DNA from: an uncultured delta proteobacterium
GTDB taxonomy: Bacteria; Myxococcota_A; Polyangia; Polyangiales; Polyangiaceae
Direction of reading: 5' to 3'
Assembly: GCA_963716725.1 (NCBI GenBank)
Contig: CAVQUB010000018.1
Location: forward strand, 64,001-128,000
Length of the DNA stretch: 64,000 nucleotides
How positions within the stretch are numbered: the stretch's first letter is position 1; each line of letters begins with the position of its first letter. The position numbers were made by a program, and so were the translations under genes. The notes beneath the pieces were generated by a model, which was not told the DNA's origin, made no database searches, and saw nothing but the letters and a program-made list of their open reading frames with translations. Below are positions 9,497 through 44,615 of the stretch, piece after piece.

Positions 9497-10168
9497 ATGC
9501 AGCGCTCCTCCCTGGTCGTGTTCGATCTCACGCCACCGCCCCCCGAACCGACCGAACGCGGCGACGTCGAGCTGTTGTCGCTGTTGATCGGCCCGGCGAA
9601 GGCCGAAGGCGCGCTGACACCGGCCGCGCGATTGCTCGACCACGCCGGTGGACTCGAGGGCATCGCCAAGATGACGGCCCGGGACATCGCGCTGGTAGCC
9701 AAGGTGCGCGCAGACCGGGCGCTGCGCGTCGTGGCCACCCTCGAACTCGGTCGACGCCTGAACGCAGCGTCGAAGCGCACGCGCCGTGACGCGCTGGGCA
9801 GCTTCGGCGCCGTCGAACTCTGGGCAGCGCCGCGCTTGTCGCATCTCGAGCACGAAGAGGTCTGGCTCCTGTGTCTCGACGGCAGAAACGTGCTCAAGGC
9901 GGCCCGCCGCGTCGCTCGCGGCGGCGCCCACGGCTGCGCCCTCACGCCCCGAGATGTCTTGACGCCGGCCCTGCGCGAGGCGGCGAGCGCCGTCGTCTTG
10001 GTTCACAACCATCCGAGCGGCGATCCGACGCCGAGCCCGGAAGACCTGCACATGACTCGAGCGCTGGCCGCCGCCTGTGAGCTGGTCGGGGTGCCGCTGC
10101 TCGACCACGTGGTCGTGGCCCATGGGGGCGCCGCCAGCGTTTTCGAAGCCCTGGAGCCCGCGCTCTAA
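9497..10168 (+). CDS. radC: RadC / JAB-domain protein
   Basis: LEHEEVWLLCLD, HNHPSGDPTPSPED, LLDHVVV. Confidence 0.92.
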   Translation: MQRSSLVVFDLTPPPPEPTERGDVELLSLLIGPAKAEGALTPAARLLDHAGGLEGIAKMTARDIALVAKVRADRALRVVATLELGRRLNAASKRTRRDALGSFGAVELWAAPRLSHLEHEEVWLLCLDGRNVLKAARRVARGGAHGCALTPRDVLTPALREAASAVVLVHNHPSGDPTPSPEDLHMTRALAAACELVGVPLLDHVVVAHGGAASVFEALEPAL

Positions 10169-10213
10169 CAGATCGGCTCGCCGTCGCTGTTCCATCGCAG
10201 TGCAAGACACTCT

Positions 10214-11653: not shown

Positions 11654-12527
11654 TCCCGAGCCGAAGCCCACGGCACCGAGCGCGGCCGTCGGCCCCAGCG
11701 CCGCCCCGACACCGAGCGCGAGCGCGGTGGCGAGCGGTCCGCCCAGGCCCCCGCGGGTTCCAGCTGCGACGCAGCCGGGCTGCCGGGTTCTGACCCTGAC
11801 GGGGGACGTGAAGACCAAGAGCGGTCCGGTCCCGAACGGCGGCGTCATCTACGGAACCGAGTGGATCGAACTCGCCAAGGGTTCCGAAATCAGCGTCCGT
11901 CACACCGTGAGCACCCGCGAGCTGACCTTGAGAGGCCCTGGCGTGGCCCTGCCCTGCCTGGGCGGCGAGGAAGAGGTCCTGCTCACCGAGGGCGTCGTGG
12001 AGACGACCGCGGGGGCTGGTGCGCGCCCCGGCGCAGAGGTCATCGTCTTCACCCCCCTCGGCAGCGTGAGCTTTGGGGATGCCCAGCTGACTATCCGCGC
12101 GTCCAAGACCAAGGTCGAGGTCAAGTCCGGCAAAGGCGAGGCGTGGATTCGGCCCGCCAAGGCCGTGACCCGCCAGGGACCCGAAAAGCTCGGTGGAGCC
12201 GGCGCCAAGGCGGTGCTGACCGGTGCGTCGCGCTTCGAGGTTCTGATCGAGGACTGCGAGGCCGCCGCGGGGGCTGCCGAAGCCCTCGCCCGGGCCGTTC
12301 TGGCTCCCGCCGCCACGGACGGGGGGACGCTGGGTGACCGAGCCGCCGCCCACCTGGTGGCCCGCAGGGCGGCCCGTGGCGCCTGCGGCGCGGCCCGGGC
12401 CGCGGCCCACGGGGAGCCGGATGCCGACAGGCGAGCGGGGCACGAGGGCCGCGTCGCCACGGCAGATCGCCGCTGGCAGTCCCTCGGGACCCCCGGCGCG
12501 CCGGCCCCAGAAAGCTCGGGGCATTGA
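11595..12527 (+). CDS. Lipoprotein with FecR-like beta domain
   Basis: Lipobox LGGC, Pro/Ala linker, beta-rich VFTPLGSVSFG / VEVKSGKGEAWI. Confidence 0.55.
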   Translation: MKGTGFWVLPLAIATLGGCDPEPKPTAPSAAVGPSAAPTPSASAVASGPPRPPRVPAATQPGCRVLTLTGDVKTKSGPVPNGGVIYGTEWIELAKGSEISVRHTVSTRELTLRGPGVALPCLGGEEEVLLTEGVVETTAGAGARPGAEVIVFTPLGSVSFGDAQLTIRASKTKVEVKSGKGEAWIRPAKAVTRQGPEKLGGAGAKAVLTGASRFEVLIEDCEAAAGAAEALARAVLAPAATDGGTLGDRAAAHLVARRAARGACGAARAAAHGEPDADRRAGHEGRVATADRRWQSLGTPGAPAPESSGH

Positions 12528-12534
12528 TGCGTCG

Positions 12535-12564
12535 TTGACAGTTTCGGTCCCGCACCGCTAGCGT
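12535..12564 (+). promoter_or_regulatory. Sigma70-type promoter candidate
   Basis: TTGACA-N18-TAGCGT upstream of the CDS at 12583. Confidence 0.5.
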
Positions 12565-12582
12565 CCGCTACGGGCGACGTCG

Positions 12583-14145
12583 ATGAGTCTTCGTAGGGAT
12601 AGTCTCGACGCGATGCGGCCTCTGGCGGGGCTCGCCATCGCTGTCTACCTGGCGGCCGGTACGGCCAACGCGGAAGAACCTCGCAAGGTCACCGAACCAT
12701 CGGTGTTGCGCGAACCGGCCGAGGTCACCCAAGTGGTCGACGCCTTCGACGAGGACGACCCCTTCGACCTGCACCTCTCGCTCGGCTATCAGCACACCTG
12801 GAAGAGCGCGAAGATCCGGCGCGAAAGCGCGGTGAACCAGGCGGGGCTCACTTCCGGCGGCTTCACCTCCGACGACATGAACGTCGCTCAGTACTCGGAG
12901 ACGACCAGTCGCCTGAACACGAGGGCCGCGATCGGCGTGTTCAAGGACATCCAACTCGTCTTCCGCTTGCCGATCATCCTGTCGAACAAGCGCAAGCTCG
13001 AGGGCCTCGACGGCAGCGACAAACAACAATCGGTCGCCTTGGCCGGGGGCCCGGGCGAGCAACTGTTCCGCTTGCCCTTCGAGTCGCCGACCCGCAGTGG
13101 CATCGAGTACCTGGCCGTCGGGCTCGATTTCGGCGTGATGAACCAGTTCCGCGATCTGACCAAGCCCACCTGGGTCATCGGCTTCGAGGGGCGCTTCAGC
13201 GTTTCCGAGCCGATGCGCGCCTGCAGCACCAACGCCAACGGCCTGAACCAACCCGGTCCTCAGAAGAAGTGCGCGCACCCGTCCGATATCAATCGCAACG
13301 GCGTGCGCGACGTCATCGACAGTGCGTCCGGAGACGAGCTCGAAGGCAGAGATCTGGGCGAGCGCGACCCCGGCGTGAGCCGTGGGACGACGGGGCTCGA
13401 GGTTCACACCTATCTTTCGAAGCGAATCAAGTACATCGAGCCCTACGCGGGCTTCAAAGCGCTATTCGAGTTCCAGAACGAGGACAGCGAGTACGGCACG
13501 ACGGATCTCAAGGGCTCCCTGGTGAACCACCCGCCCCTCGCGGGCAGCATCATCATGGGGCTCAACGTGATCCCCTGGGAGATCCGGGACCAGTTCCAGC
13601 GGGTCACCATCGACTTCCGCTTCACCGGGACCTACCGCACCGAAGGACGGGACTACTCCGAACTCTACGACGCCCTCGGATCGAGCGACGCGCCGAGCCT
13701 GCGCATGCCGACCTACGCCTCGTATCGCGAAAACCCGGCCTTCGACCCGAACCAGGCAGACGGGCCCACCAACCCGCGCTCGGTGGTGGATGCAAACTCG
13801 CAGCGCGTCTACACCACCGGCCTCACCGACGTTCAGCAGCACGGCGTCTACACGCTGAGCACGGAGCTGACCTGGCAGGCGGGAGAGTACGTGAAGTTCA
13901 GCCTCGGCGGCGGCTACACGCTGGTGCAAAGCCACCTGATCACCTTCGATCAGGCCTGCAACCCGGACTTCTCGGACGACATTCGGAAGTCCGGGCCGTG
14001 CAAGAGCACGACCCAGTCGGGGTACTCCGCCACCGGCATTCCAAACCCCAACTATCGGCCGACCATCAACACGCCAGGGCGTCGCTTCAAGGTCGACGAC
14101 TCTCACGCCTTCGACGCCTGGCTCAACGCTACCGTCATGTTCTGA
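12583..14145 (+). CDS. Exported protein, probable outer-membrane beta-barrel
   Basis: Signal peptide (start may be 12613), amphipathic strands, C-terminal ...AWLNATVMF with terminal Phe, paired Cys in loops. Confidence 0.6.
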   Translation: MSLRRDSLDAMRPLAGLAIAVYLAAGTANAEEPRKVTEPSVLREPAEVTQVVDAFDEDDPFDLHLSLGYQHTWKSAKIRRESAVNQAGLTSGGFTSDDMNVAQYSETTSRLNTRAAIGVFKDIQLVFRLPIILSNKRKLEGLDGSDKQQSVALAGGPGEQLFRLPFESPTRSGIEYLAVGLDFGVMNQFRDLTKPTWVIGFEGRFSVSEPMRACSTNANGLNQPGPQKKCAHPSDINRNGVRDVIDSASGDELEGRDLGERDPGVSRGTTGLEVHTYLSKRIKYIEPYAGFKALFEFQNEDSEYGTTDLKGSLVNHPPLAGSIIMGLNVIPWEIRDQFQRVTIDFRFTGTYRTEGRDYSELYDALGSSDAPSLRMPTYASYRENPAFDPNQADGPTNPRSVVDANSQRVYTTGLTDVQQHGVYTLSTELTWQAGEYVKFSLGGGYTLVQSHLITFDQACNPDFSDDIRKSGPCKSTTQSGYSATGIPNPNYRPTINTPGRRFKVDDSHAFDAWLNATVMF

Positions 14146-31640: not shown

Positions 31641-32135
31641 TTACGCATCCTCGGTCGCAGCGTCCACCCACACCGGGGCCAGGACCGTCGCCAAGTCCGC
31701 GGGGCAAACCGCCACCAGAAAGCCACGCGCGCCGCCGTTGACGTAGATGCGGTCGAGCGCCGCGATGGTCCGCTCCGCGTAGAGCGGCATGGGCTTCTTC
31801 AACCCGAAGGGGCTCGTGCCGCCGACCAAGTAGCCCGAGTGTTTCTCGGCCACCTTGGGATCGCAGGGCACGACGCGCTTCTTCCCGATCTGACGCGCGA
31901 GGTTCTTCGTCGACACCTCACGGTCGCCGTGCATCAGCACGCACAGCGGCGCCCTGTTCTCGTCTTCGAGGATCAGCGTCTTGACCACCTGATGCTCGTC
32001 GACTCCGAGCGCCTCCGCGGAGTGTCGGGTGCCGCCGCGAGGCTCGTAGTCGAAGACGTGGGCTTCGAAGGGCACTCTCGCGGCGCGTAGCGCACGCACG
32101 GCCAGCGTCACGGGGTGGTCGGTAGCCACGCGCAA
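31641..32135 (-). CDS. ybaK: Cys-tRNA(Pro) deacylase YbaK/EbsC family
   Basis: VVKTLI, SGYLVGGTSPFG, IYVNGGARG. Confidence 0.88.
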   Translation of the reverse strand: MRVATDHPVTLAVRALRAARVPFEAHVFDYEPRGGTRHSAEALGVDEHQVVKTLILEDENRAPLCVLMHGDREVSTKNLARQIGKKRVVPCDPKVAEKHSGYLVGGTSPFGLKKPMPLYAERTIAALDRIYVNGGARGFLVAVCPADLATVLAPVWVDAATEDA

Positions 32136-32188
32136 GACGCTATCAGAACCGCGGGGGCCCCGGCGCCGCCAGATGCCGGGCCCCTGAG

Positions 32189-32761
32189 CTACCCGCGCTC
32201 GGGCCGAACTCTACCCGCCCTCTCGCACAGCCGGTCGTAGATCCGGCGCGCGAGGGGCAGCTCCATGTCGCGAAAGTTCTTCGGATTCTGCCAAAACTCG
32301 TCGAGTTGCCCGCGCTGCTGTCGCTCGTACACGTGCGCCTTGATCATCATTTGCAGCTTGTCGGCGGCTTTGACGATGCGTGCCTCGAGGCTCGCTCCGG
32401 CCTCGGCCTCCTGCCAGCTCGCATAGAGCGCATCGGGCAACAGGTCTCTGGCCAGCGCCTCGTCGATCCGATCGAGCACCGACTCGGCCTCCGCGGTCTT
32501 CACGGGCATGGGCACGTCGCCGGTGCGCGCTTCCGGTGCGTCGTGCACGAGAGCCATTCGCAGCACACGCTCGCCGTCCACGGTCTCGCCCTCGGCTCGG
32601 AGCGCATCGGTGAGCAACATCGCCACCATCGCAACGCCGAAGCTGTGGTCAGCGATGGATTCGCAGGGACGAACGCCCCGGAGCAACCAGCCCGTGCGCG
32701 GCAGATCGCTCAGCGGATCGAGGCGAACCAGGGTGTCGATGACGCGGTCTTCAACGCACAC
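32189..32761 (-). CDS. HD-domain hydrolase (HDDC2/YfbR-like 5'-deoxynucleotidase family)
   Basis: PRTGW, ESIADHS, MALVHDAPEARTGD, EARIVKAADKLQM. Confidence 0.85.
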   Translation of the reverse strand: MCVEDRVIDTLVRLDPLSDLPRTGWLLRGVRPCESIADHSFGVAMVAMLLTDALRAEGETVDGERVLRMALVHDAPEARTGDVPMPVKTAEAESVLDRIDEALARDLLPDALYASWQEAEAGASLEARIVKAADKLQMMIKAHVYERQQRGQLDEFWQNPKNFRDMELPLARRIYDRLCERAGRVRPERG

Positions 32762-32814
32762 GGCGCGGAGCTTATCCTGGATTTGTCGTCGCGGGTCACG
32801 CTAGCGTCCGCACC

Positions 32815-34245
32815 GTGCGGTCATTGCTTGTCGCCATCGCGTTGGCCTGGACGTCGAATGCCGGCATCGCGGCGGCCGCGCCGAAGCAGGCGCCGCGTCC
32901 CGATCCGCCCATCGCACCCGATCAGAAGCGCCCGGTCCCCGACTACGACGGCCGCGGCGACGACCCCGTGACCGTCGGCGACGTGCTGCTCTGGATCCCG
33001 CGCGTCGCGCTCTCGCCTTTGTATCTGGTCAGCGAGTACGTGATCCGTCGCCCGCTGGGCTGGGGGGTGTCGGCGGCAGAGCGAAACGACGTGCCGCAGA
33101 AGCTCGTCGACCTCTTCACCTTCGGACCTGACGGCAACATCGCCCTCGTGCCCACCGGGCTCATCGATTTCGGCTTCCGCGCGAGCGTCGGCGTCTACCT
33201 GCGCTACAACGAGTTTCTCGCCGAACCCAACAAGCTCCGGGCGCGCGCGGCCACCGGCGGTCTCGATTGGTGGCTCTTCAACCTGAGCGACCGCGTGACC
33301 GTCGCGCCGCAGCAGGAGCTCGGCCCACGCGCCGAGTGGAGCACACGACCCGATTGGGTGTTTCACGGAATCGGACCCGAGTCCGGATCTCGCGAAGCAA
33401 GATTCAAGATGCGCAAGGCCGAGGCCGGCCTGCAGTACGACGCCAAGCTGTGGCGCTCGAGCGCTGCGTCGAGCTTCGTGGGCGTGCGCGACGCGAGCTT
33501 CGACCCAGCGGGCGGCACCTCCAATGATCCGACGGTCGCCCAAGAGATCGCGCGAGGACGCTACCCAGCCCCGCCCGGCCTCGCCGACGGCTACACGGTG
33601 ATGGTCCAGAGCCTGATGCTCGAGCTCGACACGCGACCCCGGCGCAGCCCCGAAGACCTGCCCGAAGCCAGCGACTACGTCTCGCCCCCGGGGAGCGGAG
33701 TCCGGCTTCAGCTCCGCGGCGAGCACGCGGCGGGGCTGCGAGACCTGCCGCGTTCGCGCGTGAGCACACCCCAACGGCACCACTGGATCGAGTATGGCGG
33801 GACCCTCGGCGGCTTCGTCGACCTGACCGGAACGCAGCGCGTGCTCGGCCTCTCCCTGATCGCGGACTTCGCGGACCCCATCGACCCCAGTGGCGAAATC
33901 CCGTTCACCGAGCAGGCGTCGCTCGGAGGCCCGCGACCGCTCCGCGGCTTTCTCGAAGGCAGATTGGTCGGACGGAGCTCCATCGTCGCCGAGCTCGACT
34001 ATCAGTATCCGATCTGGGTCTGGCTCGACGGGGCAATGCACTATGCGCTGGGCAACGTCTTCGGCGAGAGGCTCGACGGCTTCGATCTCGAACTCGCTCG
34101 GCAGTCTTTTGGCTTGGGCTTCCGCTCCATCGGCAATCGTGACCACAGCTTCGAGTTGCTCGTGGCCTTCGGCACGGACACCTTCCGCGGCGGCGCGGAG
34201 GTCGAATACCTGCGTTTCACCCTGGGCGCGACCAGTGGCTTCTAG
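32815..34245 (+). CDS. Omp85 (BamA/TamA) family beta-barrel without POTRA domains
   Basis: Signal peptide; SLGGPRPLRGF..GRLVG...ELDYQYPIW (Omp85 RGF loop motif); C-terminal Phe. Confidence 0.75.
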   Translation: MRSLLVAIALAWTSNAGIAAAAPKQAPRPDPPIAPDQKRPVPDYDGRGDDPVTVGDVLLWIPRVALSPLYLVSEYVIRRPLGWGVSAAERNDVPQKLVDLFTFGPDGNIALVPTGLIDFGFRASVGVYLRYNEFLAEPNKLRARAATGGLDWWLFNLSDRVTVAPQQELGPRAEWSTRPDWVFHGIGPESGSREARFKMRKAEAGLQYDAKLWRSSAASSFVGVRDASFDPAGGTSNDPTVAQEIARGRYPAPPGLADGYTVMVQSLMLELDTRPRRSPEDLPEASDYVSPPGSGVRLQLRGEHAAGLRDLPRSRVSTPQRHHWIEYGGTLGGFVDLTGTQRVLGLSLIADFADPIDPSGEIPFTEQASLGGPRPLRGFLEGRLVGRSSIVAELDYQYPIWVWLDGAMHYALGNVFGERLDGFDLELARQSFGLGFRSIGNRDHSFELLVAFGTDTFRGGAEVEYLRFTLGATSGF

Positions 34246-35899
34246 TCGCCTCTTGGCCCTGCTGGTCGTGGCCGTGACGGGTTGCGGCGGGGGCACACGC
34301 TGGTTTCCCGCGCAGGAGCCGCTGTGGCGCGATCCGGACCAGCGCGCCTTCGATCGCGAGCCCGACCAGTACGACTCGCCCTTCGCCTGGGACGCCGCCA
34401 ATCAGACGGTGTTCCGACCCGTGTCGCGCTTCTTCGCCGTCGATCCCGCGAGCGAAGCCGCCAACGTCAACGCGATGGACGAAGTGCCGAGCTCGAGCTG
34501 GTTCGAGAACCGGATCGGGCGCTTCGGCATGAGCCCCGAGGCCGCTGCCCAGGGTCCCTGCACCACGCCGCCGCCCGCTCGCAGCGGGCCGTGGGTGATC
34601 ACCGCGGCCAAGCCCAACGGGTTCAACCCGGGCTTCTTCATCAAGGCCAGCGATGGCAAGCGCTACCTGGTGAAGTTCGACGGCGTGGTCGAGGGCATGC
34701 GCCCCACCGCCGCGGACGTGATCGGGACGCGCCTATTCCACGCTGCGGGCTACTTCGTTCCCTGCAACCGCGTCGTGTATTTCGACCGATCGATCCTGAA
34801 GATCGACGCAAAAGCAAAGAGCGAGAACGCGCGCGGCGACGAAGTAAAGCTGGAGGAGCAGGATCTCGACCGGGTCTTCTCGAAGGCGCTGCGCCTCGCC
34901 GATGGCCGCTATCGCGCCACCACGAGCCTCTTCGTCGAAGGCAAGCCGCTCGGGCCGTGGACCTACGAGGGCCGGCGCTCAGATGACCCCAACGACGTGG
35001 TCAATCACGAAGATCGCCGGGAACTCCGCGGGCTAGAGGTGATGGCGGCGTGGCTCGCCTGGTTCGACACCCGCGAGCAGAACACCATGGCCACTTGGGT
35101 GAACGACGGCAAGACCGGCCACGTGCGCCACTACTTGCTCGACGTGGGCAACGCCTACGGCAGCATCTGGGAGCCCCCGATGATGGGGCGGCGCATCGGG
35201 CACAGCTACTACCTGGACGTGCCTTACGTGCTGGAGGACTTCGTCACCCTCGGCGCCATCGAGCGGCCCTGGGATCGCGCGCGCTTCGGCCGCACGGGCA
35301 AGGCATTCTCGTACTTCCGCGTCGAGGACTTCGATCCCGACCGCTTCCGCCCCGGCTACCCGAATCCGGCTTTCGTCCGCAAGTCCGAGCGCGACGCGGC
35401 GTGGATGGCGCGCACCGTCGCGCGTTTCTCCGACGAGCATCTGCGGGCCATCGTGAAGACCGGGTTGCTCCTGCCCGACCTCGAGTCGCGCCTGCTCGAG
35501 GTGCTGATCGGTCGGCGCGACGTGGTGCTGCGAAGGTACCTGACCCGGCTCTCGCCGCTGGCCTGGCCCGAAGTGCGGGGCAACCAGCTGTGCCTGGAGG
35601 ATCTGGCGCTGAGCGCGAAGATCGTGAAGAAAGAGGCCCGCCGCTACGCAGCGCGAGCCTGGGTCGGAAAATCCCTGGCGCTCTCGGCGATCGCCGCCAC
35701 TCGCTGGGACGGGCAGGGTCGGATTTGCCTGGCACTGCCGTCCGCGGAGGCGGGCTCCCCGCTGCTCCTCGACGTCACCGCGGCGACCCGCGACGGGAGC
35801 TCGACCTTTCCCGCCCGCGTGCACCTCTACGCGCTTGGCGATCTCCGGTATCGTGTGGTCGGCCTCGAACGACCCGACTCCCACGATCCGCCGAGCTGA
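34235..35899 (+). CDS. Lipoprotein with atypical kinase-like motifs
   Basis: GTG start overlapping the upstream stop; lipobox VTGC; GFNPGFFIKASDGKRYLVKFD, WFDTREQNT, HYLLDVG. Confidence 0.6.
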   Translation: MASSRLLALLVVAVTGCGGGTRWFPAQEPLWRDPDQRAFDREPDQYDSPFAWDAANQTVFRPVSRFFAVDPASEAANVNAMDEVPSSSWFENRIGRFGMSPEAAAQGPCTTPPPARSGPWVITAAKPNGFNPGFFIKASDGKRYLVKFDGVVEGMRPTAADVIGTRLFHAAGYFVPCNRVVYFDRSILKIDAKAKSENARGDEVKLEEQDLDRVFSKALRLADGRYRATTSLFVEGKPLGPWTYEGRRSDDPNDVVNHEDRRELRGLEVMAAWLAWFDTREQNTMATWVNDGKTGHVRHYLLDVGNAYGSIWEPPMMGRRIGHSYYLDVPYVLEDFVTLGAIERPWDRARFGRTGKAFSYFRVEDFDPDRFRPGYPNPAFVRKSERDAAWMARTVARFSDEHLRAIVKTGLLLPDLESRLLEVLIGRRDVVLRRYLTRLSPLAWPEVRGNQLCLEDLALSAKIVKKEARRYAARAWVGKSLALSAIAATRWDGQGRICLALPSAEAGSPLLLDVTAATRDGSSTFPARVHLYALGDLRYRVVGLERPDSHDPPS

Positions 35900-35900
35900 T

Positions 35901-37232
35901 GTGACCGAGCCAAACCCAACGCGCGACCGATCGGCCCTCGAGCGCCTGCTCGGCGTCATCACCCGCGTCGAAGCCGGAGAGGGCGTGTCGGCCCTGCTGA
36001 TGACGCTCAACGTGCTCGTGCTCATGACCGCCTACTCATCCATCAAGCCCGTGCGCGAGGGCTTGATCTTGGCGATGGCGTCCGGCGCCGAATACAAGGC
36101 GTACATGGGCGGCGCCATCGCCATCGCGCTGCTCTTCGCCGTGCCCGCCTACGCACGTTTTGCCGATCGACTGCCGCGAAACCGTCTCGTCGTGGGGGTC
36201 ACGCTGTTCTTCGCCATGAACTTGGTGCTGTTCTGGGCGGGCAGCTCCGTCTCGTCGATCCGCTCGCGGCTCGGGCTCCTCTACTACCTGTGGCTCGGCA
36301 TCTTCAACATGATGGTGGTGGCGCAGTTCTGGGCTTTCGCCAACGATCTGTACCGTGAGGACCAAGGCAAACGACTGTTCCCGCTGCTCGGCGTCGGGCA
36401 AACGCTGGGCGCGGTGCTCGGTGCCGGGCTCTCGGTCTGGCTCTTGGCGCGCGTTGGCGTCTTCAACATGCTGCTGGTCGGCGCGGGCCTGCTCACGGTC
36501 ACGGCAGGGCTGACCCAAGTCGTGCACACTCGTGAGCGCGCGAAGGCCGCCCTCCGACCGCAGCCTCAAGGCGATCGCGGCGGCGCCTTCGAGCTGGTGC
36601 TGCGGAGCCGCTATTTGCGCTTCATCGCCGCCTTTGCCTTGCTCTTCACCTTCGTGAACAGCAACGGCGAGTACATGCTCGGGAGCTTGGTCAAAGAGGC
36701 CGCCGACGCCGCGGTGAGGGCCGGAACCCTCGAGCCGGACGCGGTAAAGGAGTGGGTCGGAGACGCCTACAGTCGCTTCTATCTGTACACCAACGTGGCG
36801 ACCGTGGCCGTGCAAGCGCTGCTCGTCTCCCGTCTGGTCCGGGTCTGGGGCCTCGAGCGCGCGTTCTTCGTGCTGCCGGTCATCGCGCTCGTCGACGCCC
36901 TGGGAGCAGCGGCGTTCCCCGTCATGGCCGTGGTGTTCTTCGGCAAGATTGCCGAGAACTCGACGGACTACTCCCTGAACAACACTCTCCGCAACATGCT
37001 GTGGCTGCCGACGAGCCGCGAGGTGAAGTACAAGGCGAAGCAGGCGGTGGACACCTTCTTCGTCCGCATGGGCGACGTGAGCTCGGCGGTCGCCGTGTTC
37101 GCGCTAGCCAGTCAACTCGGGCTCGGCGTGCGCGCTTTTGCTCTGGTGAACGTCGCTCTCGTGATGCTCTGGTTGGTCTTGGCCAAGAAGATCGTGACGG
37201 GCTACCTCAATCTGTCTCGGGCGCCGGAATGA
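35901..37232 (+). CDS. Npt1/Npt2 (TLC, ATP/ADP translocase) family nucleotide transporter
   Basis: About 12 TM segments; YSSIKPVRE, QFWAFANDLY, GKRLFPLLG, YSLNNTLRNMLWLP, KYKAKQAVDTFFVRMGD. Confidence 0.85.
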   Translation: MTEPNPTRDRSALERLLGVITRVEAGEGVSALLMTLNVLVLMTAYSSIKPVREGLILAMASGAEYKAYMGGAIAIALLFAVPAYARFADRLPRNRLVVGVTLFFAMNLVLFWAGSSVSSIRSRLGLLYYLWLGIFNMMVVAQFWAFANDLYREDQGKRLFPLLGVGQTLGAVLGAGLSVWLLARVGVFNMLLVGAGLLTVTAGLTQVVHTRERAKAALRPQPQGDRGGAFELVLRSRYLRFIAAFALLFTFVNSNGEYMLGSLVKEAADAAVRAGTLEPDAVKEWVGDAYSRFYLYTNVATVAVQALLVSRLVRVWGLERAFFVLPVIALVDALGAAAFPVMAVVFFGKIAENSTDYSLNNTLRNMLWLPTSREVKYKAKQAVDTFFVRMGDVSSAVAVFALASQLGLGVRAFALVNVALVMLWLVLAKKIVTGYLNLSRAPE

Positions 37233-37309
37233 CCTGCAGGCGTTCTGTGTGCACGACGCCCCGAGGCGCTGGACGCGCCGAAGCTCTCGTGTGACACTCT
37301 CGTGTCGAT

Positions 37310-38881
37310 TTGGTAACCAGCACTCAAAGACCCGAACCGTCTCCAACTTCCGCTCATCGCCCGTCGCAGCGGGCACCGGAACGCCCGAGCGACTGGGGAT
37401 CGCTCGTCGCGGATCTCTCTCGCGGGCGTGACGAGCCGACGGTCCACCTCCACGACCGGACCCACCTCGAGCTGGCTATCGACTACCGCTTGCGCCCAGG
37501 CCGCTCGGTCGAGTCGTTCGTCTGGGAGGCCTACTTCTTCGCGCCCGAGAGCCTGAGGCTCGACAGCCGCACCTACGACAAGACCGACATCTACACCGAT
37601 CTGCAGAGCTACGTCCGCTTCGAGGTGCCCGATGTCTCGTTCACGGATCTCGCAGGCGCCCCCATCGACAAACTGCGCACCGCCCTCGAGGGCAGCGACG
37701 ACGCGGCCGTGCGCGAGATGCGGCTCTTCGCGTGTCAGGTGCGTGCCGCCGGCGTCGAAATGCGGCAGCGCATCATCAGCGCGCTCGAGGGTGGCGAGGA
37801 CGAGCGCGCTCGTGCCGAGCAGGCCGCCGTTCGCATGACCACCGACTGCAAGCGGATCGCTTCGAAGCTGCGAGAGGCGTTGGCTCCCGCAGCCGATCGC
37901 GGCGACCCCCTCGACACCGCGGCCAAGTGGGTCGACGAGGACGTCTCGCGGCTGCTCGAGACGCTGCTGGCCACCATCAGCCGCCGCCTCGAGGCCGTGG
38001 GCAGCTCTCGTTCGCTGGTCGAGCTCGTCGAGCAGGGAGCTATCGCCGAGGCCACCTATCGCGACGAGAGCGGAATCGGCCGCACCGGACGGCTGAAGAT
38101 GACGCCACGCGAGATCGAAGCGCTGGAGTTCCGACGTCACCTGCTCAAGCGGTTCACGTCGTCGGTATTGTGGCTGAGCCCCGAGGTGCGTCCGGCGGGC
38201 ACCTGGGTGCGCGAGATCTCCTACGCAGCAGCCGCATCCATCGCCATGGCGTTTGCCATCGGCGCCGCCATCTGGAACGGCTTCGAGGTCGGCTCCGAGG
38301 GGCTGATGACCTGGGTGTTGGTCGCCGTGGTCGCCTACGCGGTCAAGGATCGCTTCAAGGCGCTGCTGCAATCGAAGATCTCCAGCGTGGTTGATCGCCA
38401 CTTTCCCGACCGCCGCTGGCGCATTCGGGACCGCGAGCGTTCCGTGGTCCTCGGCGAGATGAAGGAACAGAGCGGATTTCTGGCAATGGACGATTTGCCG
38501 GCTGCCGTCCTCGCGGCTCGACGGCTGACGCGCGAGCACCAGCTGGAGGAGCAGGCGCGTCCAGAGACCGTGCTCTTCCACAAGAAGGAAGTGGACGTCC
38601 AGGCGCAGCGCGTCGCGGTCGCCGATCCGCGTTTCTCCGCGCTGACGGAGATCTTCCGCCTCGACGTGGGCCGCTGGCTCGCCCACACCGACGACCCCAA
38701 GCGTGACATCGTGTTTGCGGATCCGGTCGCGCGGAAGGTCGCCGCCGCCAAAGCACCGCGCGTCTACAACCTGGCGGTGGTGTTTCGACTCCGGCGTGAG
38801 GCCGACGACTCAGCGCCCTGGCATCGCCTGCGCGTCGTCGTCTCCCGCAAGGGCATCCGTCGCATCGAGCGCATCGCCTGA
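37310..38881 (+). CDS. Hypothetical protein with central 2-TM hairpin
   Basis: Long ORF; HDRTHLEL, YFFAPESL; TM pair ISYAAAASIAMAFAIG / WVLVAVVAYAVKDRFK. Confidence 0.7.
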   Translation: MVTSTQRPEPSPTSAHRPSQRAPERPSDWGSLVADLSRGRDEPTVHLHDRTHLELAIDYRLRPGRSVESFVWEAYFFAPESLRLDSRTYDKTDIYTDLQSYVRFEVPDVSFTDLAGAPIDKLRTALEGSDDAAVREMRLFACQVRAAGVEMRQRIISALEGGEDERARAEQAAVRMTTDCKRIASKLREALAPAADRGDPLDTAAKWVDEDVSRLLETLLATISRRLEAVGSSRSLVELVEQGAIAEATYRDESGIGRTGRLKMTPREIEALEFRRHLLKRFTSSVLWLSPEVRPAGTWVREISYAAAASIAMAFAIGAAIWNGFEVGSEGLMTWVLVAVVAYAVKDRFKALLQSKISSVVDRHFPDRRWRIRDRERSVVLGEMKEQSGFLAMDDLPAAVLAARRLTREHQLEEQARPETVLFHKKEVDVQAQRVAVADPRFSALTEIFRLDVGRWLAHTDDPKRDIVFADPVARKVAAAKAPRVYNLAVVFRLRREADDSAPWHRLRVVVSRKGIRRIERIA

Positions 38882-38915
38882 CCGGTCTCGCCCGGGCACG
38901 CCCAACCGGCGCCGC

Positions 38916-40793
38916 TCAGTGACCGCCGCCGGCCTTGGGCTTGGCGCCCCAAATCCGGAGTGAGAGAACGAACCCGATCAGGGCAAAGGGCAGCAAGAAC
39001 CACGGCCAGTACGCCCAAGACTTGGTCGTCAGGAACCCGAGCGCCACCGACTGTAACGCAGTGCCCAGGTAGACGAAGCCGTCGATCACGCCGACGGCGG
39101 TGGCTGCGCCCTTCCGACCGCCAAAGTCCATGGTGGCCGTGCCGCTGAGCAGGCCGTGCGTGCCGATCACGCACAGGCTCACGAGAAAGACCAAGACGCC
39201 CAACACGTAGGGACTGATGGGCAAGACCGGGCGAGCCTTCAAGAGGCGCATGTCACCGGCGCGCTGCGTCGGCTTGGGATCGGGCAATGCCAGATCTTGG
39301 ACCTGGCCGCTGCGCTCCACCTTCGCCGCGATCACTGGGTCGCGCTTCTCGGCCGGTGCTGACGCCAATGCCGAGACACACATGCACTTCTTCGAGTCCC
39401 ACCCTGCGTCTTTGCACTGCGCCGGGACACAAGCCACGGCGTTTCGCACCTCGGGCCAGCCGCTGACCTGCTCATCGCCACCGATGGCCAAGATCTTGTC
39501 GCCCGTCTGAAGCCCGCTCTTCGAGTCGGCCGACTCGACGATGTTGGTGGGTGTAGCCAGCGCGAAGCCCATGCCGAGCACACACACCGCCAACAGTCCG
39601 TAGAGGAACGCCGCGGCCGGACCGCGTCGACTCTGGAAGAACAAGTCGCTGACCCAGCCCGCAACGTTGCCGCCGATCACGCCGGCCACCATCAAGAGCC
39701 CGCCCCAACCGCCCTGCATGAAGGGAGCGAGGAAGGCCAGCGCCGCCCCCACCGCGTAGGCGCCGCGCCGCCTTCCGTGTGCTCGCTTGGCCAGAACCGC
39801 CGACACTACCGCCACCGCAAAGCACGGCAGCGCCGGCCAGAGCGGCAGCCAAGCGCCGTCCCGCATGGCCATCAGGAGCGCGCCGCCGCGCAACGCATGT
39901 TCGTTGGGCAGCGCCCAGATTTCGTTGGCGTAGATCGGAAACCAATGCATGACGCCGTTGCGCAAGACGCCGGTGCAGAACTCGATCAACGCCACCGTGA
40001 TGATGACCGGGTTGCTCAGGATTTGCCTGAAGAGCTTCATCGCCGGAATGGGCGTGTCGCTGGTGTCGCCGGACGAAGCGTCCCCGGTGTCGAAGTCCGC
40101 GTGCCCCGCCTGTCCCGGCCGGTCGCGAAGGAGCGACAGCTCGACGAAAAAGAACAGAGCGAGCATCACCGCTGGAATCGCGAACACCACCCACGCAACG
40201 CTCGGTCCAGGAGCCCCGGGCCAGACCCGCTGCGCCGCCTTGAGCAAGAGCTCGTTCACGGTGAAGGCGAGAAAGATCCCGCTGGAGATCATGGTGCCGA
40301 AGATCCCCGAGAACCCGCCCCGCTCGCTGACGTGAAACCAGTGAGCGTTCACCTTGACGATGGAGACCGCGCCGAAGCTCTGGAAGTACATGTTCAGCGC
40401 GTAGAGCACGCTGAACACCAGCCGGAGCGGCGCGCTGGTTGCCTCCCCCGACGAGACCACGTGGTAGAGGTAGGCGCCCATCGCCAGGTTCGCGACGGCG
40501 GAGCCCGCCGCGCCAGCCAGCATGCCTTTCCGGCCGCCCATGCGGTCGACGAGCGGACCGTTCAGGAGGAACGCGAAGGCGTAGACGAAAGTGCCGGCGC
40601 CGAAGATGATGCCGAAGTCCTCTTTGGTCATCAGCTCGCCCAGCGAGTTCTTCGCGACCGTGAGGTTGTAGCGCCCCATGTAGAGCAGCGCGTAGGTCAC
40701 GCCGAGCGGGAACCAGTTGAGGAAGCGCCGGCGTCGAAAGGCGTCGGAGTGCGCTAGAAACGGCGCGGCGGCCGTCGCGGAGGTCCCGGACAT
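38916..40793 (-). CDS. MFS transporter, GlpT/OPA family, with inserted PDZ-like domain
   Basis: YALLYMGRYN, GPLVDRMGGR, WFHVSERG, GWVSDLFFQSRRGP, DFGGRKGAATAVGVIDGFVYLG; soluble insert GLQTGDKILAIGG. Confidence 0.85.
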   Translation of the reverse strand: MSGTSATAAAPFLAHSDAFRRRRFLNWFPLGVTYALLYMGRYNLTVAKNSLGELMTKEDFGIIFGAGTFVYAFAFLLNGPLVDRMGGRKGMLAGAAGSAVANLAMGAYLYHVVSSGEATSAPLRLVFSVLYALNMYFQSFGAVSIVKVNAHWFHVSERGGFSGIFGTMISSGIFLAFTVNELLLKAAQRVWPGAPGPSVAWVVFAIPAVMLALFFFVELSLLRDRPGQAGHADFDTGDASSGDTSDTPIPAMKLFRQILSNPVIITVALIEFCTGVLRNGVMHWFPIYANEIWALPNEHALRGGALLMAMRDGAWLPLWPALPCFAVAVVSAVLAKRAHGRRRGAYAVGAALAFLAPFMQGGWGGLLMVAGVIGGNVAGWVSDLFFQSRRGPAAAFLYGLLAVCVLGMGFALATPTNIVESADSKSGLQTGDKILAIGGDEQVSGWPEVRNAVACVPAQCKDAGWDSKKCMCVSALASAPAEKRDPVIAAKVERSGQVQDLALPDPKPTQRAGDMRLLKARPVLPISPYVLGVLVFLVSLCVIGTHGLLSGTATMDFGGRKGAATAVGVIDGFVYLGTALQSVALGFLTTKSWAYWPWFLLPFALIGFVLSLRIWGAKPKAGGGH

Positions 40794-42539: not shown

Positions 42540-44471
42540 TCAGACGCCTTCGTCCAATCGGCGCATGCCTTCGAGCAGCAGCGCCTCTGGGCTCTCGGGG
42601 ATCATGCGTTGCGGCGCCTCGAAGCCCGGATCGAAGACGAAGGAACCCTCCCGCAGCTGCAACATCGCGTACACGGCCTCGGAGCCGCGCGCCCCGGCGA
42701 AGAGCGCGTTGTAGATATTCCCGCTGACGAAGTGGAGTTCGCCCGCATCCGTCGCGGTGCGAAGCTTGAGCGCGCCGGTCTTGCGACCCTGCCACAAGAC
42801 CTGCACCAGCTCGGGCAGACCCATCTCGACCAGCGACCCCGACACACCGCCGGCCCCGGCGGTGTCCGATCGCGCCAAGATGGTCTTGATCTTGGCAACC
42901 AAGAGATCCGGGCTCACGGGCTTGGTCAGGTAGTCCGTGGCGCCAGCTTCGAAAGCCATTTGCGCGTCGGCCCCGGAGGTGCGCGCCGTGAGGAAGACCC
43001 ACGGCAGCTTCATGCCCCACTGCCGGCGACGCGCCCAACCGAGCAACGTGACGCCGTCCATCGGCAAGAGGTCCATCTCTGCGATCACGATCTGGATATC
43101 GCCGCACTCGAGGAGCTGCATGGCCTGATCGGTGTTGCGGGCCGGCCGCACGTCGAACCCCTGCTCGAGCATGCGGAGCTCGAGCACCGTCGTCTCTTCG
43201 GGATCCGGGTCGACGATCAAGGCCACGTGACGCGTCGCCAGCAGCCGAGCCCGCAGATCGTCGCCGGTGATGATCAGGCGGAAGAGGTCCACGATGTTCG
43301 GATCGAAGACGCTGCCTCGGTACCTCGCCAGTACGTCACAGGCCGCCGCGGGATCGAGCAGCTCTCGGAACGGGTTCTTGGGGTTCTGTGTCAGATCCGC
43401 ATAGGTGTCGGCGACGGCGAGCAGGCGCGCGATCAGTGGGATCTCTTTGCCGTGGAGCGCCCCCGGCAGCCCGTCACCGTCGTAGCGCTCGTACATGGTC
43501 TCGACGGCGGTGGTCACTTCCCGCGGCAGCCGCACGGCCTCCATCAGACTCGACGGAGCGCGAAACAGCTTGGCAGCCACCGCCCGGTGTTGATCGTACT
43601 GCGCCACGTTGAACGCAGTGAGGTGATAGTCGGTGACTTTGCCGAGATCGTGCAGGTAGCCCACGATCGACGCGCTGGTGCGCTCGGCGTCGGGCAGCCC
43701 AATGCGCTCGGTGATCCGGCGCATGAGCCTGGCCACGTAAGCCGAGTGTCCCCGCATGTCGGGACGCGTGCTCTCGATGAGGGAGGTCAGGACGTTGAGG
43801 GTCTCGAGGTAGGAGCTGGTCGACACGGACTCCGCGCCGACGCCGCGGGTCCCGCCGGTCAAATCGTGTCCGGACAGAATGCGTTCCCGCCCGGGGCGCT
43901 CGGCGGACAGGGCCGCCGCCAAGGTCTCGGGACTGACCAGGTTCCGCTCGTACACGTCGAGCATGCTGGTGAACAGCGCCTGTGCCTGGCGGTCGAGCAC
44001 GGCGAAGGCGTGGATGTCACCGCCGTAGGCCTTGGCGATGGCGGCCTTCACAGCGCGGGGCCGGCCAACGAAAGCCCGGACCGTCTTCACCCCCGACACG
44101 ATCTGGGTCTCGTGCAGGGCCTCGGCGTTGTCGGGATCGGCCGTGACTACCGAGAGCACACCGGACTGCGCGTCGTAGAGCACGGGAAAGAGCTGGTGTT
44201 GCTCCGCCAGGCGCTTGGGAACCTTCTCCATGGCAAAGCGATCGAGCTCGGCCCTGGACAGTTTATCGGTGGAGACGAAACGCGTGCGGTGCAACCCTGC
44301 CAGGTACTTGAGGAGCGACACCTCGTCGACAGCTCGCAGCTCGAGCAAGCACTCTTCGACTCGCTCCCCCGTCCGCTGCATGTAGGAGATGGACGCCTCC
44401 TGCTGCTCGCGCGTGATTAGGCCGTCGGCCACCATCCGCTCGACGAGTCGCATGCCTGAGGCGGGGTTCAT
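42540..44471 (-). CDS. MshEN/GSPII_E-N + HD-GYP-like + receiver + DUF4388 (PATAN) multidomain signalling protein
   Basis: RLVERMVADGLIT, VPKRLAEQHQLFP, TADP; GHS..HDLGK..YERYDGDGLP; LLPMDG..FLTA..GATDYLTKP; SGSLVEMGLPELVQVL..GRKTG. Confidence 0.8.
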   Translation of the reverse strand: MNPASGMRLVERMVADGLITREQQEASISYMQRTGERVEECLLELRAVDEVSLLKYLAGLHRTRFVSTDKLSRAELDRFAMEKVPKRLAEQHQLFPVLYDAQSGVLSVVTADPDNAEALHETQIVSGVKTVRAFVGRPRAVKAAIAKAYGGDIHAFAVLDRQAQALFTSMLDVYERNLVSPETLAAALSAERPGRERILSGHDLTGGTRGVGAESVSTSSYLETLNVLTSLIESTRPDMRGHSAYVARLMRRITERIGLPDAERTSASIVGYLHDLGKVTDYHLTAFNVAQYDQHRAVAAKLFRAPSSLMEAVRLPREVTTAVETMYERYDGDGLPGALHGKEIPLIARLLAVADTYADLTQNPKNPFRELLDPAAACDVLARYRGSVFDPNIVDLFRLIITGDDLRARLLATRHVALIVDPDPEETTVLELRMLEQGFDVRPARNTDQAMQLLECGDIQIVIAEMDLLPMDGVTLLGWARRRQWGMKLPWVFLTARTSGADAQMAFEAGATDYLTKPVSPDLLVAKIKTILARSDTAGAGGVSGSLVEMGLPELVQVLWQGRKTGALKLRTATDAGELHFVSGNIYNALFAGARGSEAVYAMLQLREGSFVFDPGFEAPQRMIPESPEALLLEGMRRLDEGV

Positions 44472-44615
44472 GGAGCGGGCTCGAGAAGTACGGGGCCCCG
44501 GGAGTATAGCGGACCGAGGCCTCCCCGGGGCGTCGAGCCGGCGGCAGTCATCCCGACAAAATGCCGGCAATCCCGCCGGCGCTCATCCCCGGGAAATGCG
44601 AGACCGAGGCCGCGC

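Follow-up and report, generated by a model that had tools for sequence, protein, structure and literature searches.

An Omp85 barrel, an atypical kinase-like lipoprotein and a TLC/NTT-type carrier encoded side by side in a myxobacterium: a candidate ATP-supplied extracytoplasmic kinase

The periplasm is taught to be without ATP, and envelope processes are described as drawing their energy from the inner membrane or from pre-activated donors. However, in the DNA of a soil/water myxobacterium, within a window of 64,000 nucleotides (the whole stretch analysed), three co-directional genes on the + strand encode an outer-membrane barrel, a kinase-like lipoprotein and a TLC/NTT carrier, which raises the question of what a kinase and a nucleotide-carrier homologue could do together in the cell envelope. 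An earlier note had taken the trio for a functionally linked set with one component per envelope layer that moves nucleotides, either exporting ATP to fuel a kinase partnered by the barrel or scavenging nucleotides. The genes and their features are listed below.

32815..34245, + strand: POTRA-less ("noNterm") Omp85-family outer-membrane barrel, 476 aa
N-terminus of the 32815..34245 product, + strand: signal peptide, part of the 476-aa protein
32974-33117, + strand: N-terminal helices of the barrel protein, residues ~54-101 (AF2 model)
33127-34242, + strand: 16-stranded barrel, residues ~105-476 (AF2 model)
33943-33951, + strand: loop-6 RGF motif, residues 377-379 (alignment conservation)
34235..34245, + strand: 11-bp overlap of barrel and lipoprotein genes; barrel TAG 34243-34245, lipoprotein GTG 34235-34237 (DNA read directly)
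34235..35899, + strand: predicted lipoprotein of the outer membrane, 554 aa from GTG at 34235, carrying an atypical protein-kinase-like domain
34283-34285, + strand: lipobox Cys17; the N-terminus reads MASSRLLALLVVAVTG-C
34286-34540, + strand: conserved N-terminal arm, residues 18-102
34541-35554, + strand: kinase-like domain, residues ~103-440 (AF2 model, fold matches)
34673..34675, + strand: Lys147, where the third N-lobe strand ends; candidate Lys for anchoring ATP (K in 50 of 56 members)
35066..35083, + strand: catalytic-loop-like D278-x-R-x-x-N283 (family consensus HxDx[RK]xxN)
35141..35149, + strand: DFG-like motif, here D303-V-G305 (DFG in most of the family)
35555-35869, + strand: Fn3-like beta-sandwich, residues ~441-545 (fold matches)
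35897..35903, + strand: lipoprotein/carrier junction; TGA 35897-35899, 1-bp gap, GTG at 35901 (DNA read directly)
35901..37232, + strand: inner-membrane TLC/NTT carrier (ATP:ADP antiporter, MFS-clan), 443 aa from GTG at 35901

The GC3 of the three genes is 0.83-0.85, the pattern of real genes, and their common direction, 11-bp overlap and 1-bp gap, as described previously, agree with the ORFs and with the DNA read directly. The overlap between the barrel stop and the lipoprotein start suggests translational coupling. No promoter-like sites were found in a scan of 32100-39100, and the only terminator-like site in this region is located inside the carrier gene; shuffled sequence gives more of them, and the scan is uninformative.

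In the AF2 model of the barrel protein (pLDDT 82), 16 strands are present. Its VIA fold matches are Sam50 (Z 22.4, spanning residues 108-474), BamA (22.3), TamA (21.4) and FhaC (19.4), with FhaC and CdiB in the range of 18.7-19.4 and porins at 14.3 or lower, while Foldseek detects Sam50/BamA at E 3e-10 and also the BamA-RcsF structure (6t1w). The fold is that of the BamA/Sam50/TamA-type 16-stranded barrels of the Omp85 superfamily. Loop 6 contains the (V)RG(F/Y) motif, the hallmark of the Omp85 family; of 41 sequences, 36 have R377, 41 have G378 and 35 have F379. The Pfam Omp85 model (PF01103) gives 16.4 bits for this barrel (cut-off 24), and it is present in many close relatives; a paralogue in the same genome scores 56.8 bits. 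No POTRA-like beta-alpha-alpha-beta-beta unit was found in the barrel model, in which residues 54-101 are helices. Lacking POTRA, the barrel is therefore a noNterm protein and no member of the BamA, TamA or TpsB subfamilies, and the fold confirms its previous description as a POTRA-less Omp85 protein.

Described noNterm Omp85 proteins are likewise 16-stranded and POTRA-less (PMC4104836, PMC11358297). A lipoprotein gene lies directly downstream of the noNterm paralogues of Leptospira, as it does here, but the partners in Leptospira are adhesin-like (Big/integrin or DUF1566) and not kinases, and no linked carrier is mentioned in the accessible portion of the text (PMC11358297).

The product of the second gene has the signal peptide of a bacterial lipoprotein, ending in a lipobox; 52 of the 56 family members retain its Cys, and position +2 is A, G or S. 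We infer its sorting to the outer membrane and its periplasmic orientation. The family comprises 2604 clusters at 50% identity. No Pfam match (E of 0.1 or less) or NCBIfam match was found for the lipoprotein, Fam20 (PF06702), HipA (PF07804/PF20613), CotH (PF08757) and PI3_PI4_kinase (PF00454) being among the Pfam families without a match, and no solved kinase is matched at sequence level even at E 10; weak HipA_2 matches occur in 9 of 56 family members (best E 7.9e-4). However, the AF2 model (pLDDT 93.7, pTM 0.93) has a bilobal kinase fold, matched at Z 12.0-13.7 over about 230-260 aligned residues spanning 103-440. Only atypical kinases are found at the top of the fold matches, and several of these are exported (by VIA, CtkA Z 13.7, Fam20C 13.5, PI4KII-alpha 12.3 and CotH 12.1), and Foldseek matches Fam20C at E 3.8e-5 with a probability of 1.0. 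Residues 437-545 match Fn3 domains at Z 7-8 (VIA), well below the kinase scores.

Since there is no sequence-level link to solved kinases, the catalytic residues were assigned by motif pattern and position, not by residue-level superposition. In this assignment, the beta-3 Lys, the catalytic-loop Asp and Asn and the DFG Asp are all present, and the order of secondary structures around them is as expected. For example, K147 is located at the end of strand 143-148, just ahead of helix 156-171 (AF2 model), and the D278 motif follows helix 267-274 and precedes strands 284-290 and 295-301, like in protein-kinase folds. D278 is kept in 53, R/K280 in 48 and N283 in 51 of 56 family members, and the corresponding numbers for D303, F304 and G305 are 54, 44 and 42; an acidic residue at 161 is conserved too. 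This copy deviates at two positions, with W276 (H in 44 of 56 members) and V304 (F in most members). The kept catalytic Asp argues for an enzyme over a mere binding protein, and by its model the lipoprotein looks like a catalytically intact atypical kinase, in line with the "kinase-like" label that it had received before.

Do the barrel and the lipoprotein bind each other? Modelling of their complex, a check proposed in the earlier note, gave a score of 0.67 (runs 0.67, 0.64 and 0.72), compared with 0.00 for the best of 3 controls; 58 of 80 solved complexes attain the mark of 0.67, as do 2 of 110 mismatched pairs. Between runs, at least 90% of contacts are the same, with 134-143 confident contacts and a partner pLDDT of at least 85. 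The kinase is placed on the periplasmic face of the barrel, where the N-terminal helices and conserved periplasmic turns of the barrel are predicted to hold it. On the barrel, the interface consists of W60, P62, R63, Y70, E74, R78, S286-D287, Q341-R342 and Y396...D405, which lie on the periplasmic side, to judge by the strand order in the barrel model, and which are the most conserved residues of the barrel in the alignment. The predicted interface spans residues 59-94, 278-289, 338-342 and 396-408 of the barrel and 22-85 and 311-360 of the lipoprotein. A large interface built of such residues is more like that of a stable complex. Taken together, sequence, fold and model evidence point to a two-protein core complex in the outer membrane. 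LptD-LptE and BamA-RcsF likewise combine an outer-membrane barrel with a dedicated lipoprotein, but here, instead of a plug or a threaded sensor, the model has a kinase domain, enzyme-like in its features, beneath the barrel.

The third gene, judged by its sequence, encodes a divergent member of the TLC/NTT family (TC 2.A.12). PF03219 (TLC) scores 55.5 bits on the carrier against a cut-off of 21, while TIGR00769, the NTP/NDP exchanger equivalog, gives 51.5 bits, below its cut-off of 387.2. The carrier matches solved plastid and chlamydial NTTs (NTT1, 9j3j, E 8.4e-8; 9j3n) and shares their motifs, its nearest 30 Atlas clusters are TLC without exception (30 of 30), and about 11-12 hydrophobic segments were counted in a hydropathy scan, so the TLC motifs claimed for it earlier are real. 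It has Pfam TLC membership and motifs in common with Chlamydia Npt1, Rickettsia Tlc1 and plastid NTT1, but differs from these characterised NTTs in being shorter (443 aa), in lying far under the equivalog score and in belonging to a free-living lineage. In one genome of the same genus, stops and frame changes interrupt the reading frame of the carrier, while the neighbouring genes are intact.

In order to see how often the genes occur together, 80 lipoprotein loci from genomes were surveyed, 43 of which are well-flanked (at least 5 kb on both sides), along with 79 metagenome loci that represent a remote part of the family (contig GC 0.47-0.75), 46 of them having 1.5 kb or more of upstream sequence. 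Observations from related genomes are not independent in these counts. Of the 80 genome loci, 63 have a barrel gene close to the lipoprotein gene (adjacent in 36 of the 43 well-flanked ones), as do 64 of 79 metagenome loci (adjacent in 45 of the 46 with enough upstream sequence), and one cluster (P0168) is a kinase-Omp85 fusion. The barrel-lipoprotein pair is the core of the module.

The carrier gene is less constant. Among the 43 well-flanked genome loci, 24 have a TLC gene of at least 35% identity within 7 kb and 28 have any TLC gene within this distance, which leaves 15 without; a TLC gene is also near the lipoprotein gene in 9 of 14 metagenome loci, and overall about 55-65% of well-flanked loci have such a neighbour. 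This genome of 7.9 Mb contains only 2-3 TLC loci, so a TLC neighbour would be expected by chance in less than 1% of cases. All three genes are present at 33 loci in nine different orders, and because the arrangement recurs in many species and in so many orders, it is far from chance; the synteny in other genomes on which the earlier note had made its proposal depend does exist. By our reading, a short carrier is encoded in 20 of 23 relatives with the lipoprotein, but in only 2 of the 18 that lack it. Sampling across the phylum shows the short carrier in 8 of 10 lipoprotein-positive genomes and not in the other 2. A TLC gene is within 6 kb of the lipoprotein gene in 6 of 8 genomes, which belong to several families, and a further 10 genomes encode the carrier but no lipoprotein. 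The paralogous barrel-lipoprotein pair of this same genome has no TLC gene within 5 kb. The carrier is thus a frequent but facultative neighbour of the pair.

Other genes also occur around the module. Membrane PAP2 phosphatases are encoded at 15 of 80 genome loci and 9 of 79 metagenome loci. Where the carrier occurs without the lipoprotein, it adjoins a PPDK_N/PEP-utiliser phosphotransferase with a signal-peptide-like N-terminus in 3 of 10 loci; this phosphotransferase is an ATP-using enzyme, and its pairing with the carrier is an independent parallel to the pairing with the lipoprotein. The upstream HD-domain nucleotidase gene (32189-32761, - strand) and the downstream gene for a 523-aa protein (37310-38881, + strand) accompany the trio in same-genus loci only, and both were rejected as parts of the module.

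The explanation we favour, although we give it slightly less than an even chance, is an extracytoplasmic kinase that is supplied with ATP by a TLC/NTT-type carrier. The kinase lipoprotein would have its anchor in the outer membrane's inner leaflet and be held under its dedicated barrel by its N-terminal arm together with the N-terminal helices and periplasmic turns of the barrel. There it might phosphorylate an outer-membrane substrate, which could be a lipid, a glycan or a protein, e.g. the barrel's own conserved periplasmic turn. The inner-membrane carrier would supply it by swapping cytoplasmic ATP for periplasmic ADP, so that the module would correspond, in bacteria, to Fam20C of the Golgi with its ER/Golgi ATP/ADP exchanger, and in a minority of loci PAP2 phosphatases would take the phosphate off again. 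An extracytoplasmic location is suggested by the lipobox Cys of the lipoprotein and the signal peptide of the barrel. Against the explanation count the import direction of every characterised NTT, the deviations at W276 and V304, the lack of a sequence-level link to solved kinases, the low TIGR00769 score of the carrier, its broken frame in one same-genus genome and the facultative linkage, and periplasmic ATP could leak outward via porins. Of what was proposed before, a functionally linked set is supported by synteny, phyletic co-occurrence, fold and the complex model, with the carrier as a facultative part, and the evidence favours the option of ATP export fuelling a barrel-partnered kinase, as a predicted activity. 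The picture of a nucleotide-moving system with a component in each envelope layer does not find support in that form: nothing marks the barrel as a nucleotide channel, and the carrier is facultative.

Three other explanations were weighed. Polyangia include predators, and the carrier might import periplasmic nucleotides, e.g. from lysed prey, which the barrel-lipoprotein pair would capture, admit or process. A kinase fold binds nucleotides, and the synteny evidence fits such scavenging equally well. Nevertheless we consider it unlikely. The barrel has the fold of Sam50, BamA, TamA and FhaC (Z 19-22) and not that of porins (14 or lower), and Omp85 barrels are insertases or translocases and are not known as small-molecule channels. 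Moreover, the lipoprotein is modelled on the periplasmic face and not at the surface, the catalytic Asp278, kept in nearly the whole family, would be superfluous in a binding protein, barrel-lipoprotein pairs occur without the carrier, and the same carrier adjoins another apparently exported ATP-using enzyme. In favour of scavenging, all characterised NTTs are importers, with PamNTT1 functionally asymmetric and favouring ATP import (PMC1951785). Alternatively, the kinase lipoprotein could reach the cell surface through the barrel, acting as a TPS-like or Slam-like translocon, for which we see rather little chance; the same small chance is given to the further step that a surface kinase uses external ATP on prey or matrix, with the carrier linked indirectly only. 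The noNterm Omp85 genes of Leptospira precede lipoprotein genes, and a TPS-like role has been discussed for them (PMC11358297). The FhaC and CdiB matches and the 11-bp gene overlap are consistent with an export pair, and the modelled periplasmic docking could be a pre-export state. However, a POTRA domain that could take up a substrate is missing from this barrel, the large conserved interface suits a stable complex, and the link to an inner-membrane nucleotide carrier and to PAP2 phosphatases would be left unexplained.

BamA works with lipoproteins, and the lipoprotein might be a non-catalytic, pseudokinase-like accessory of an alternative outer-membrane assembly or lipid-handling machine, with the TLC-like carrier moving something other than a nucleotide. 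A role of noNterm Omp85 in membrane-protein biogenesis is suggested by Heinz & Lithgow (PMC4104836), the carrier is highly divergent from characterised NTTs, and this copy of the lipoprotein deviates at residues 276 and 304. We regard such a scaffold as very improbable, since the full set of catalytic-type residues is conserved in a family of 2604 clusters and the carrier retains the signature NTT motifs common to the solved NTT1.

Returning to the ATP-supplied kinase, a close parallel outside bacteria is Fam20C, the Golgi casein kinase, an atypical kinase outside the cytosol, together with the ER/Golgi ATP/ADP exchanger AXER/SLC35B1, a carrier that possibly brings the ATP. The lipoprotein matches Fam20 structures about as well as any other fold (Z 13.4-13.5, Foldseek E 3.8e-5). 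There is no sequence relation, however: the carrier here is TLC/MFS and not SLC35, the kinase is a lipoprotein docked, by its model, to a barrel, and the function is a predicted one. CtkA of H. pylori (HipA-like) and CotH of Bacillus, which act outside the cytoplasm, have a similar fold (Z 13.7 and 12.1), but neither is a lipoprotein that has an Omp85 protein as partner or a nucleotide carrier linked to it, and the lipoprotein family adds the N-terminal arm and the C-terminal Fn3-like domain. Uncharacterised NTT and NTT-HEAT(-cNBD) genes of free-living bacteria were reported by Major et al. 2017 (PMC5381601), and a link of the carrier to barrel and kinase is absent from the available text of that paper. 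NTT-HEAT and cNMP-binding genes are also found near loci of this module, which matches what is said there of NTT-HEAT (PMC5381601). A literature search for a described module of this kind, covering papers open without subscription, returned nothing relevant.

On a wider scale, we suggest tentatively, at a little below even chance, that some free-living diderms run ATP-dependent periplasmic phosphorylation, in which an NTT-type carrier, trading cytoplasmic ATP for periplasmic ADP, feeds a new family of kinase lipoproteins under a dedicated Omp85 barrel and, at other loci, exported PPDK-type phosphotransferases. Such diderms would be Polyangia and, going by the GC range and the Atlas labels, probably members of other phyla. 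If this is true, the textbook "ATP-free periplasm" fails for these organisms. It would also give a first function to noNterm Omp85 barrels, to free-living NTT genes and to a Pfam-less lipoprotein family of ~2600 clusters, and the view of the origin of NTT carriers would change, as they would have energised the envelope before their recruitment to energy parasitism. Because a homologue of ATP/ADP carriers is paired, widely and in a conserved manner, with an exported kinase that looks catalytically intact, a regulated periplasmic ATP supply becomes directly testable in culturable organisms; the module is carried by Sorangium.

The core of the module is the barrel-lipoprotein pair, and the TLC-family carrier is a frequent, non-random accessory of it. 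The window has a G+C content of about 68%, the nearest protein relatives of its genes are labelled Polyangiaceae or Myxococcales, and the trio lies as follows.

32815-34245, plus strand, Omp85 barrel (476 aa)
34235-35899, plus strand, kinase-like lipoprotein (554 aa)
35901-37232, plus strand, TLC/NTT-type carrier (443 aa)

The three ORFs run in the same direction, with a codon-position GC pattern typical of real genes. Read in the DNA, the barrel stop TAG (34243-34245) lies beyond the lipoprotein start GTG at 34235, an overlap of 11 bp, and the lipoprotein stop TGA (35897-35899) is followed by one base and then by the carrier start GTG at 35901. This confirms the co-directional arrangement in the earlier note, whose descriptions of the products, a kinase-like lipoprotein, a POTRA-less Omp85 barrel and a carrier with Npt/TLC motifs, were also borne out. 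A simple promoter and terminator scan of 32100-39100 says little about transcription: it gave no promoter-like site and a single terminator-like one, within the carrier gene, which is below the number in shuffled sequence.

The N-terminus of the lipoprotein is MASSRLLALLVVAVTG-C, and no family was found for the protein in Pfam and NCBIfam. Its relatives number at least 2938 matches in a 90%-identity database and form 2604 clusters at 50% identity; among the 120 matches listed, none carries a Pfam domain and every displayed name is "hypothetical protein". In the predicted model (pLDDT 93.7, pTM 0.93), fold searches find almost only atypical kinases for residues ~103-440: CtkA (Z 13.7), Fam20C (Z 13.5; Foldseek E 3.8e-5), Hydra Fam20 (Z 13.4), PI4KII-alpha (Z 12.3) and CotH (Z 12.1), followed by actin-fragmin kinase, HipA and MavQ. 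An Fn3-like sandwich follows at residues ~437-545, with matches at Z 7-8, a score level commonly reached. Among 56 diverse family members, K147 (50), an acidic residue at 161 (48), H276 (44), D278 (53), R/K280 (48), N283 (51), D303 (54), F304 (44) and G305 (42) are kept, and in the model these motifs sit at the kinase-fold positions of the beta-3 Lys, the alpha-C acid, the HxDxKxxN catalytic loop and DFG; the copy in the window carries W276 and V304. A further invariant set comprises R227, D251, D254, H258, R261, R262, R265, H299, D387, W390 and R427. Since no sequence-level match to any solved kinase was found and HipA_2 matches are weak (9 of 56 members), the assignment as a predicted kinase-fold protein rests on fold and motif, and the lipoprotein falls outside the Fam20, HipA, CotH and PI4K sequence families.

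The barrel scores 16.4 bits against Pfam Omp85, below threshold, while PF01103 is present in many of its relatives. Its AlphaFold model (pLDDT 82) shows 16 strands, preceded by a signal peptide and by helices at residues 54-101. The best fold matches, at Z 21-22, are Sam50, BamA and TamA; FhaC and CdiB reach about Z 19 and ordinary porins 14.3 or less. The loop-6 RGF motif is conserved. Because no POTRA domain is found in the model, with only the helices at the N-terminus, the protein is a predicted "noNterm" Omp85, in the sense in which Heinz & Lithgow (PMC4104836) present that class, and belongs to the Omp85 superfamily. The carrier reaches 55.5 bits against PF03219 (TLC; cut-off 21) and only 51.5 bits against TIGR00769 (cut-off 387.2), and 30 of its 30 nearest Atlas clusters are TLC. 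It has ~11-12 hydrophobic segments. It aligns with 9j3j, a solved structure of plastid NTT1 (E 8.4e-8), and with 9j3n, and has in common with them the motifs FWxFAN...K[KR]xFPLxGxG and YSL...P...K.K.K.A[IV]D. By sequence it is a true but divergent member of the Pfam TLC family, at a level from which substrate and direction are not readable.

The linkage proposed for the trio held closely for the barrel and lipoprotein and partly for the carrier. Of 20 loci from relatives, by our recount, 17 have a barrel match beside the lipoprotein, and 10 have an orthologous carrier no more than 5 kb away. A wider set consists of the best 80 of at least 578 genome matches, every one of them labelled Polyangia, Myxococcota or similar, with Sorangium and Labilithrix among them; 63 of these loci have a barrel (61 of them within 500 bp) and 35 a carrier with an identity of 35% or more. 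Where at least 5 kb is present on each side (43 loci), the barrel is found in 36, such a carrier in 24 and any TLC gene in 28, and HMM-based counts agree. However, the other 15 have no TLC gene nearby, which counts against an obligatory link. The 33 loci holding all three genes show nine distinct gene orders or orientations, and therefore the linkage is more than inherited gene order. As the source genome has only 2-3 TLC-family loci, the chance expectation of a TLC neighbour is below 1% per locus.

The pattern recurs in a distant branch of lipoprotein relatives, 31-40% identical to the window's copy, on metagenome contigs with a GC of 0.47-0.75. The barrel is found in 64 of these 79 loci, and in 45 of the 46 with at least 1.5 kb upstream; a TLC gene is found in 24 of 79, and in 9 of the 14 flanked by 3 kb or more on both sides. 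One Atlas cluster, bearing on spread beyond Myxococcota, is labelled mostly Acidobacteriota. Across 41 relatives, 20 of the 23 genomes in which the lipoprotein is strongly matched have a carrier with an identity of 40% or more, vs 2 of the 18 without such a match; in 14 of the 20, carrier and lipoprotein genes share a contig and are no more than 7 kb apart. These counts and the next ones are readings of paired tables, in which genomes that are related do not count as independent. Sampled evenly, 121 genomes of the phylum include 10 with the lipoprotein; 8 of these have the short carrier, and 6 of the 8 strong positives outside the source genome, from several families, have a TLC-family gene within 6 kb. 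Against an obligatory link, 10 genomes of this sample have the carrier and lack the lipoprotein.

Two loci also speak against an obligatory link. In a genome of the same genus (G004:C27:114676-115935; loci L017/L036), the carrier is matched in pieces across frames with internal TGA stops, which points to a pseudogene or to an error of assembly, and the adjacent barrel and lipoprotein are intact. Contig 9 of the source genome (G000; locus L032, 57624-68976, ~1560-10953) holds a second, paralogous pair, whose Omp85 protein (634 aa) scores 56.8 bits against PF01103 and whose lipoprotein shares 34-36% identity with the window's copy. No TLC gene was found within 5 kb of it, and its neighbours are a radical-SAM gene, a 720-aa HEAT-repeat protein and a Wzy_C/TPR protein.

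Modelling of the complex, a kind of check suggested in the earlier note, supports predicted binding of the two core proteins. The model, built from residues 40-476 of the barrel and 18-554 of the lipoprotein with a separate alignment for each, scored 0.67 (runs 0.67, 0.64 and 0.72) vs 0.00 for the best of three controls, with at least 90% of contacts in agreement between runs and partner pLDDT of at least 85. Of solved complexes, 58 of 80 reach that mark, as do 2 of 110 mismatched pairs; these counts hold roughly here, since our own alignments were used. We know of no solved complex of an Omp85 barrel with a kinase lipoprotein, so a score that echoes a known structure is unlikely. The predicted interface joins the N-terminal helices 59-94 and residues 278-289, 338-342, 396-408 and 436 of the barrel, which are also its most conserved residues, to the N-terminal arm 22-85 and residues 311-360, directly after DFG, of the lipoprotein. 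The N-terminus is periplasmic in other Omp85 proteins; taking it as such here, strand order would make the barrel segments periplasmic turns, so that in the model the kinase sits below the barrel and its activation-segment side rests against these turns. Ser286-Asp287 of the barrel (window 33670-33675; kept in 36 of 41 and 40 of 41 sequences) lies in a long periplasmic turn inside the predicted interface and could, speculatively, be a phospho-acceptor.

Anatomy and genetic linkage of the trio are solid. Seen in sequence or model are an exported kinase-fold lipoprotein with conserved catalytic-type residues, an Omp85 partner and a linked TLC-family carrier. The reading tentatively favoured is the first option of the earlier note, ATP export to an extracytoplasmic kinase. 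The kinase would work in the periplasm and need ATP there, and the carrier would supply it through ATP/ADP exchange, much as eukaryotic secretory-pathway kinases are fed by an ATP/ADP exchanger. We infer this function tentatively and give ATP supply to a periplasmic kinase slightly less than an even chance; if true, it would be a new kind of bacterial envelope system. No description of the combined barrel, kinase lipoprotein and carrier was found in the open-access papers searched. The chief argument against ATP supply is that every characterised NTT is an importer, PamNTT1 being built to favour ATP import, as presented in PMC1951785; nucleotide scavenging, with the carrier as importer, is therefore a live rival. 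Surface export of the lipoprotein by the barrel, in a TPS-like manner, is another live rival, an idea that PMC11358297 raises for Leptospira noNterm Omp85 genes and downstream lipoproteins.

The ATP-supply reading gains from an unplanned parallel. Ten loci have the same carrier without the lipoprotein, and in three (L196, L197 and L198; ~5700-13350 in each), from three different families, exported Beta-lactamase2-like proteins lie downstream of the carrier, followed by a ~900-aa protein that combines PPDK_N (ATP-binding) with PEP-utiliser domains and starts with a segment resembling a signal peptide (signal peptides judged by eye), and then by a second TLC gene. This protein may be another exported ATP-using enzyme tied to the carrier, which supports the idea of ATP supply.

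Membrane PAP2 phosphatases, which carry a signal peptide and have several hydrophobic segments, recur near the lipoprotein, in 15 of the 80 genome loci (e.g. L051:8356-9591) and 9 of the 79 metagenome loci (e.g. L116 and L156). They would reverse the kinase's modification, and since they are membrane-embedded, a lipid-linked kinase substrate is hinted at. Long NTT-HEAT fusion proteins (~900-985 aa) stand near the module in several loci besides the short carrier, and cNMP-binding proteins also recur, for example:

L051:10531-13338, minus strand, long NTT-HEAT protein
L099:9623-12577, minus strand, long NTT-HEAT protein
L051:9609-10754, minus strand, cNMP-binding protein

Major et al. (PMC5381601) describe the NTT-HEAT architecture, where they treat it, as uncharacterised in free-living bacteria. 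Two database proteins, P0168 (1000 aa; kinase lipoprotein joined to an Omp85 domain) and P0170 (837 aa; N-terminal part of the kinase lipoprotein joined to a PAP2 domain), could be true fusions or gene-calling mergers. At L199 and L200, a Beta-lactamase2 gene adjoins the carrier.

The genes flanking the trio in the window are these.

32189-32761, minus strand, HD-domain YfbR-like 5'-deoxynucleotidase, divergent from the barrel gene
37310-38881, plus strand, 523-aa protein without a Pfam match, with two hydrophobic segments near residues 303-345, beginning 78 bp past the carrier

An opposite-strand MFS gene comes after the latter. The nucleotidase and the downstream genes were rejected as parts of the module, because they keep company with the trio only in same-genus genomes; for the same reason the nucleotidase is probably unrelated to the trio despite the nucleotide theme. 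Elsewhere in the window, 42540-44570 (minus strand) encodes a 676-aa multidomain signalling protein with MshEN, HD_5/HD, response-regulator receiver and DUF4388 domains.
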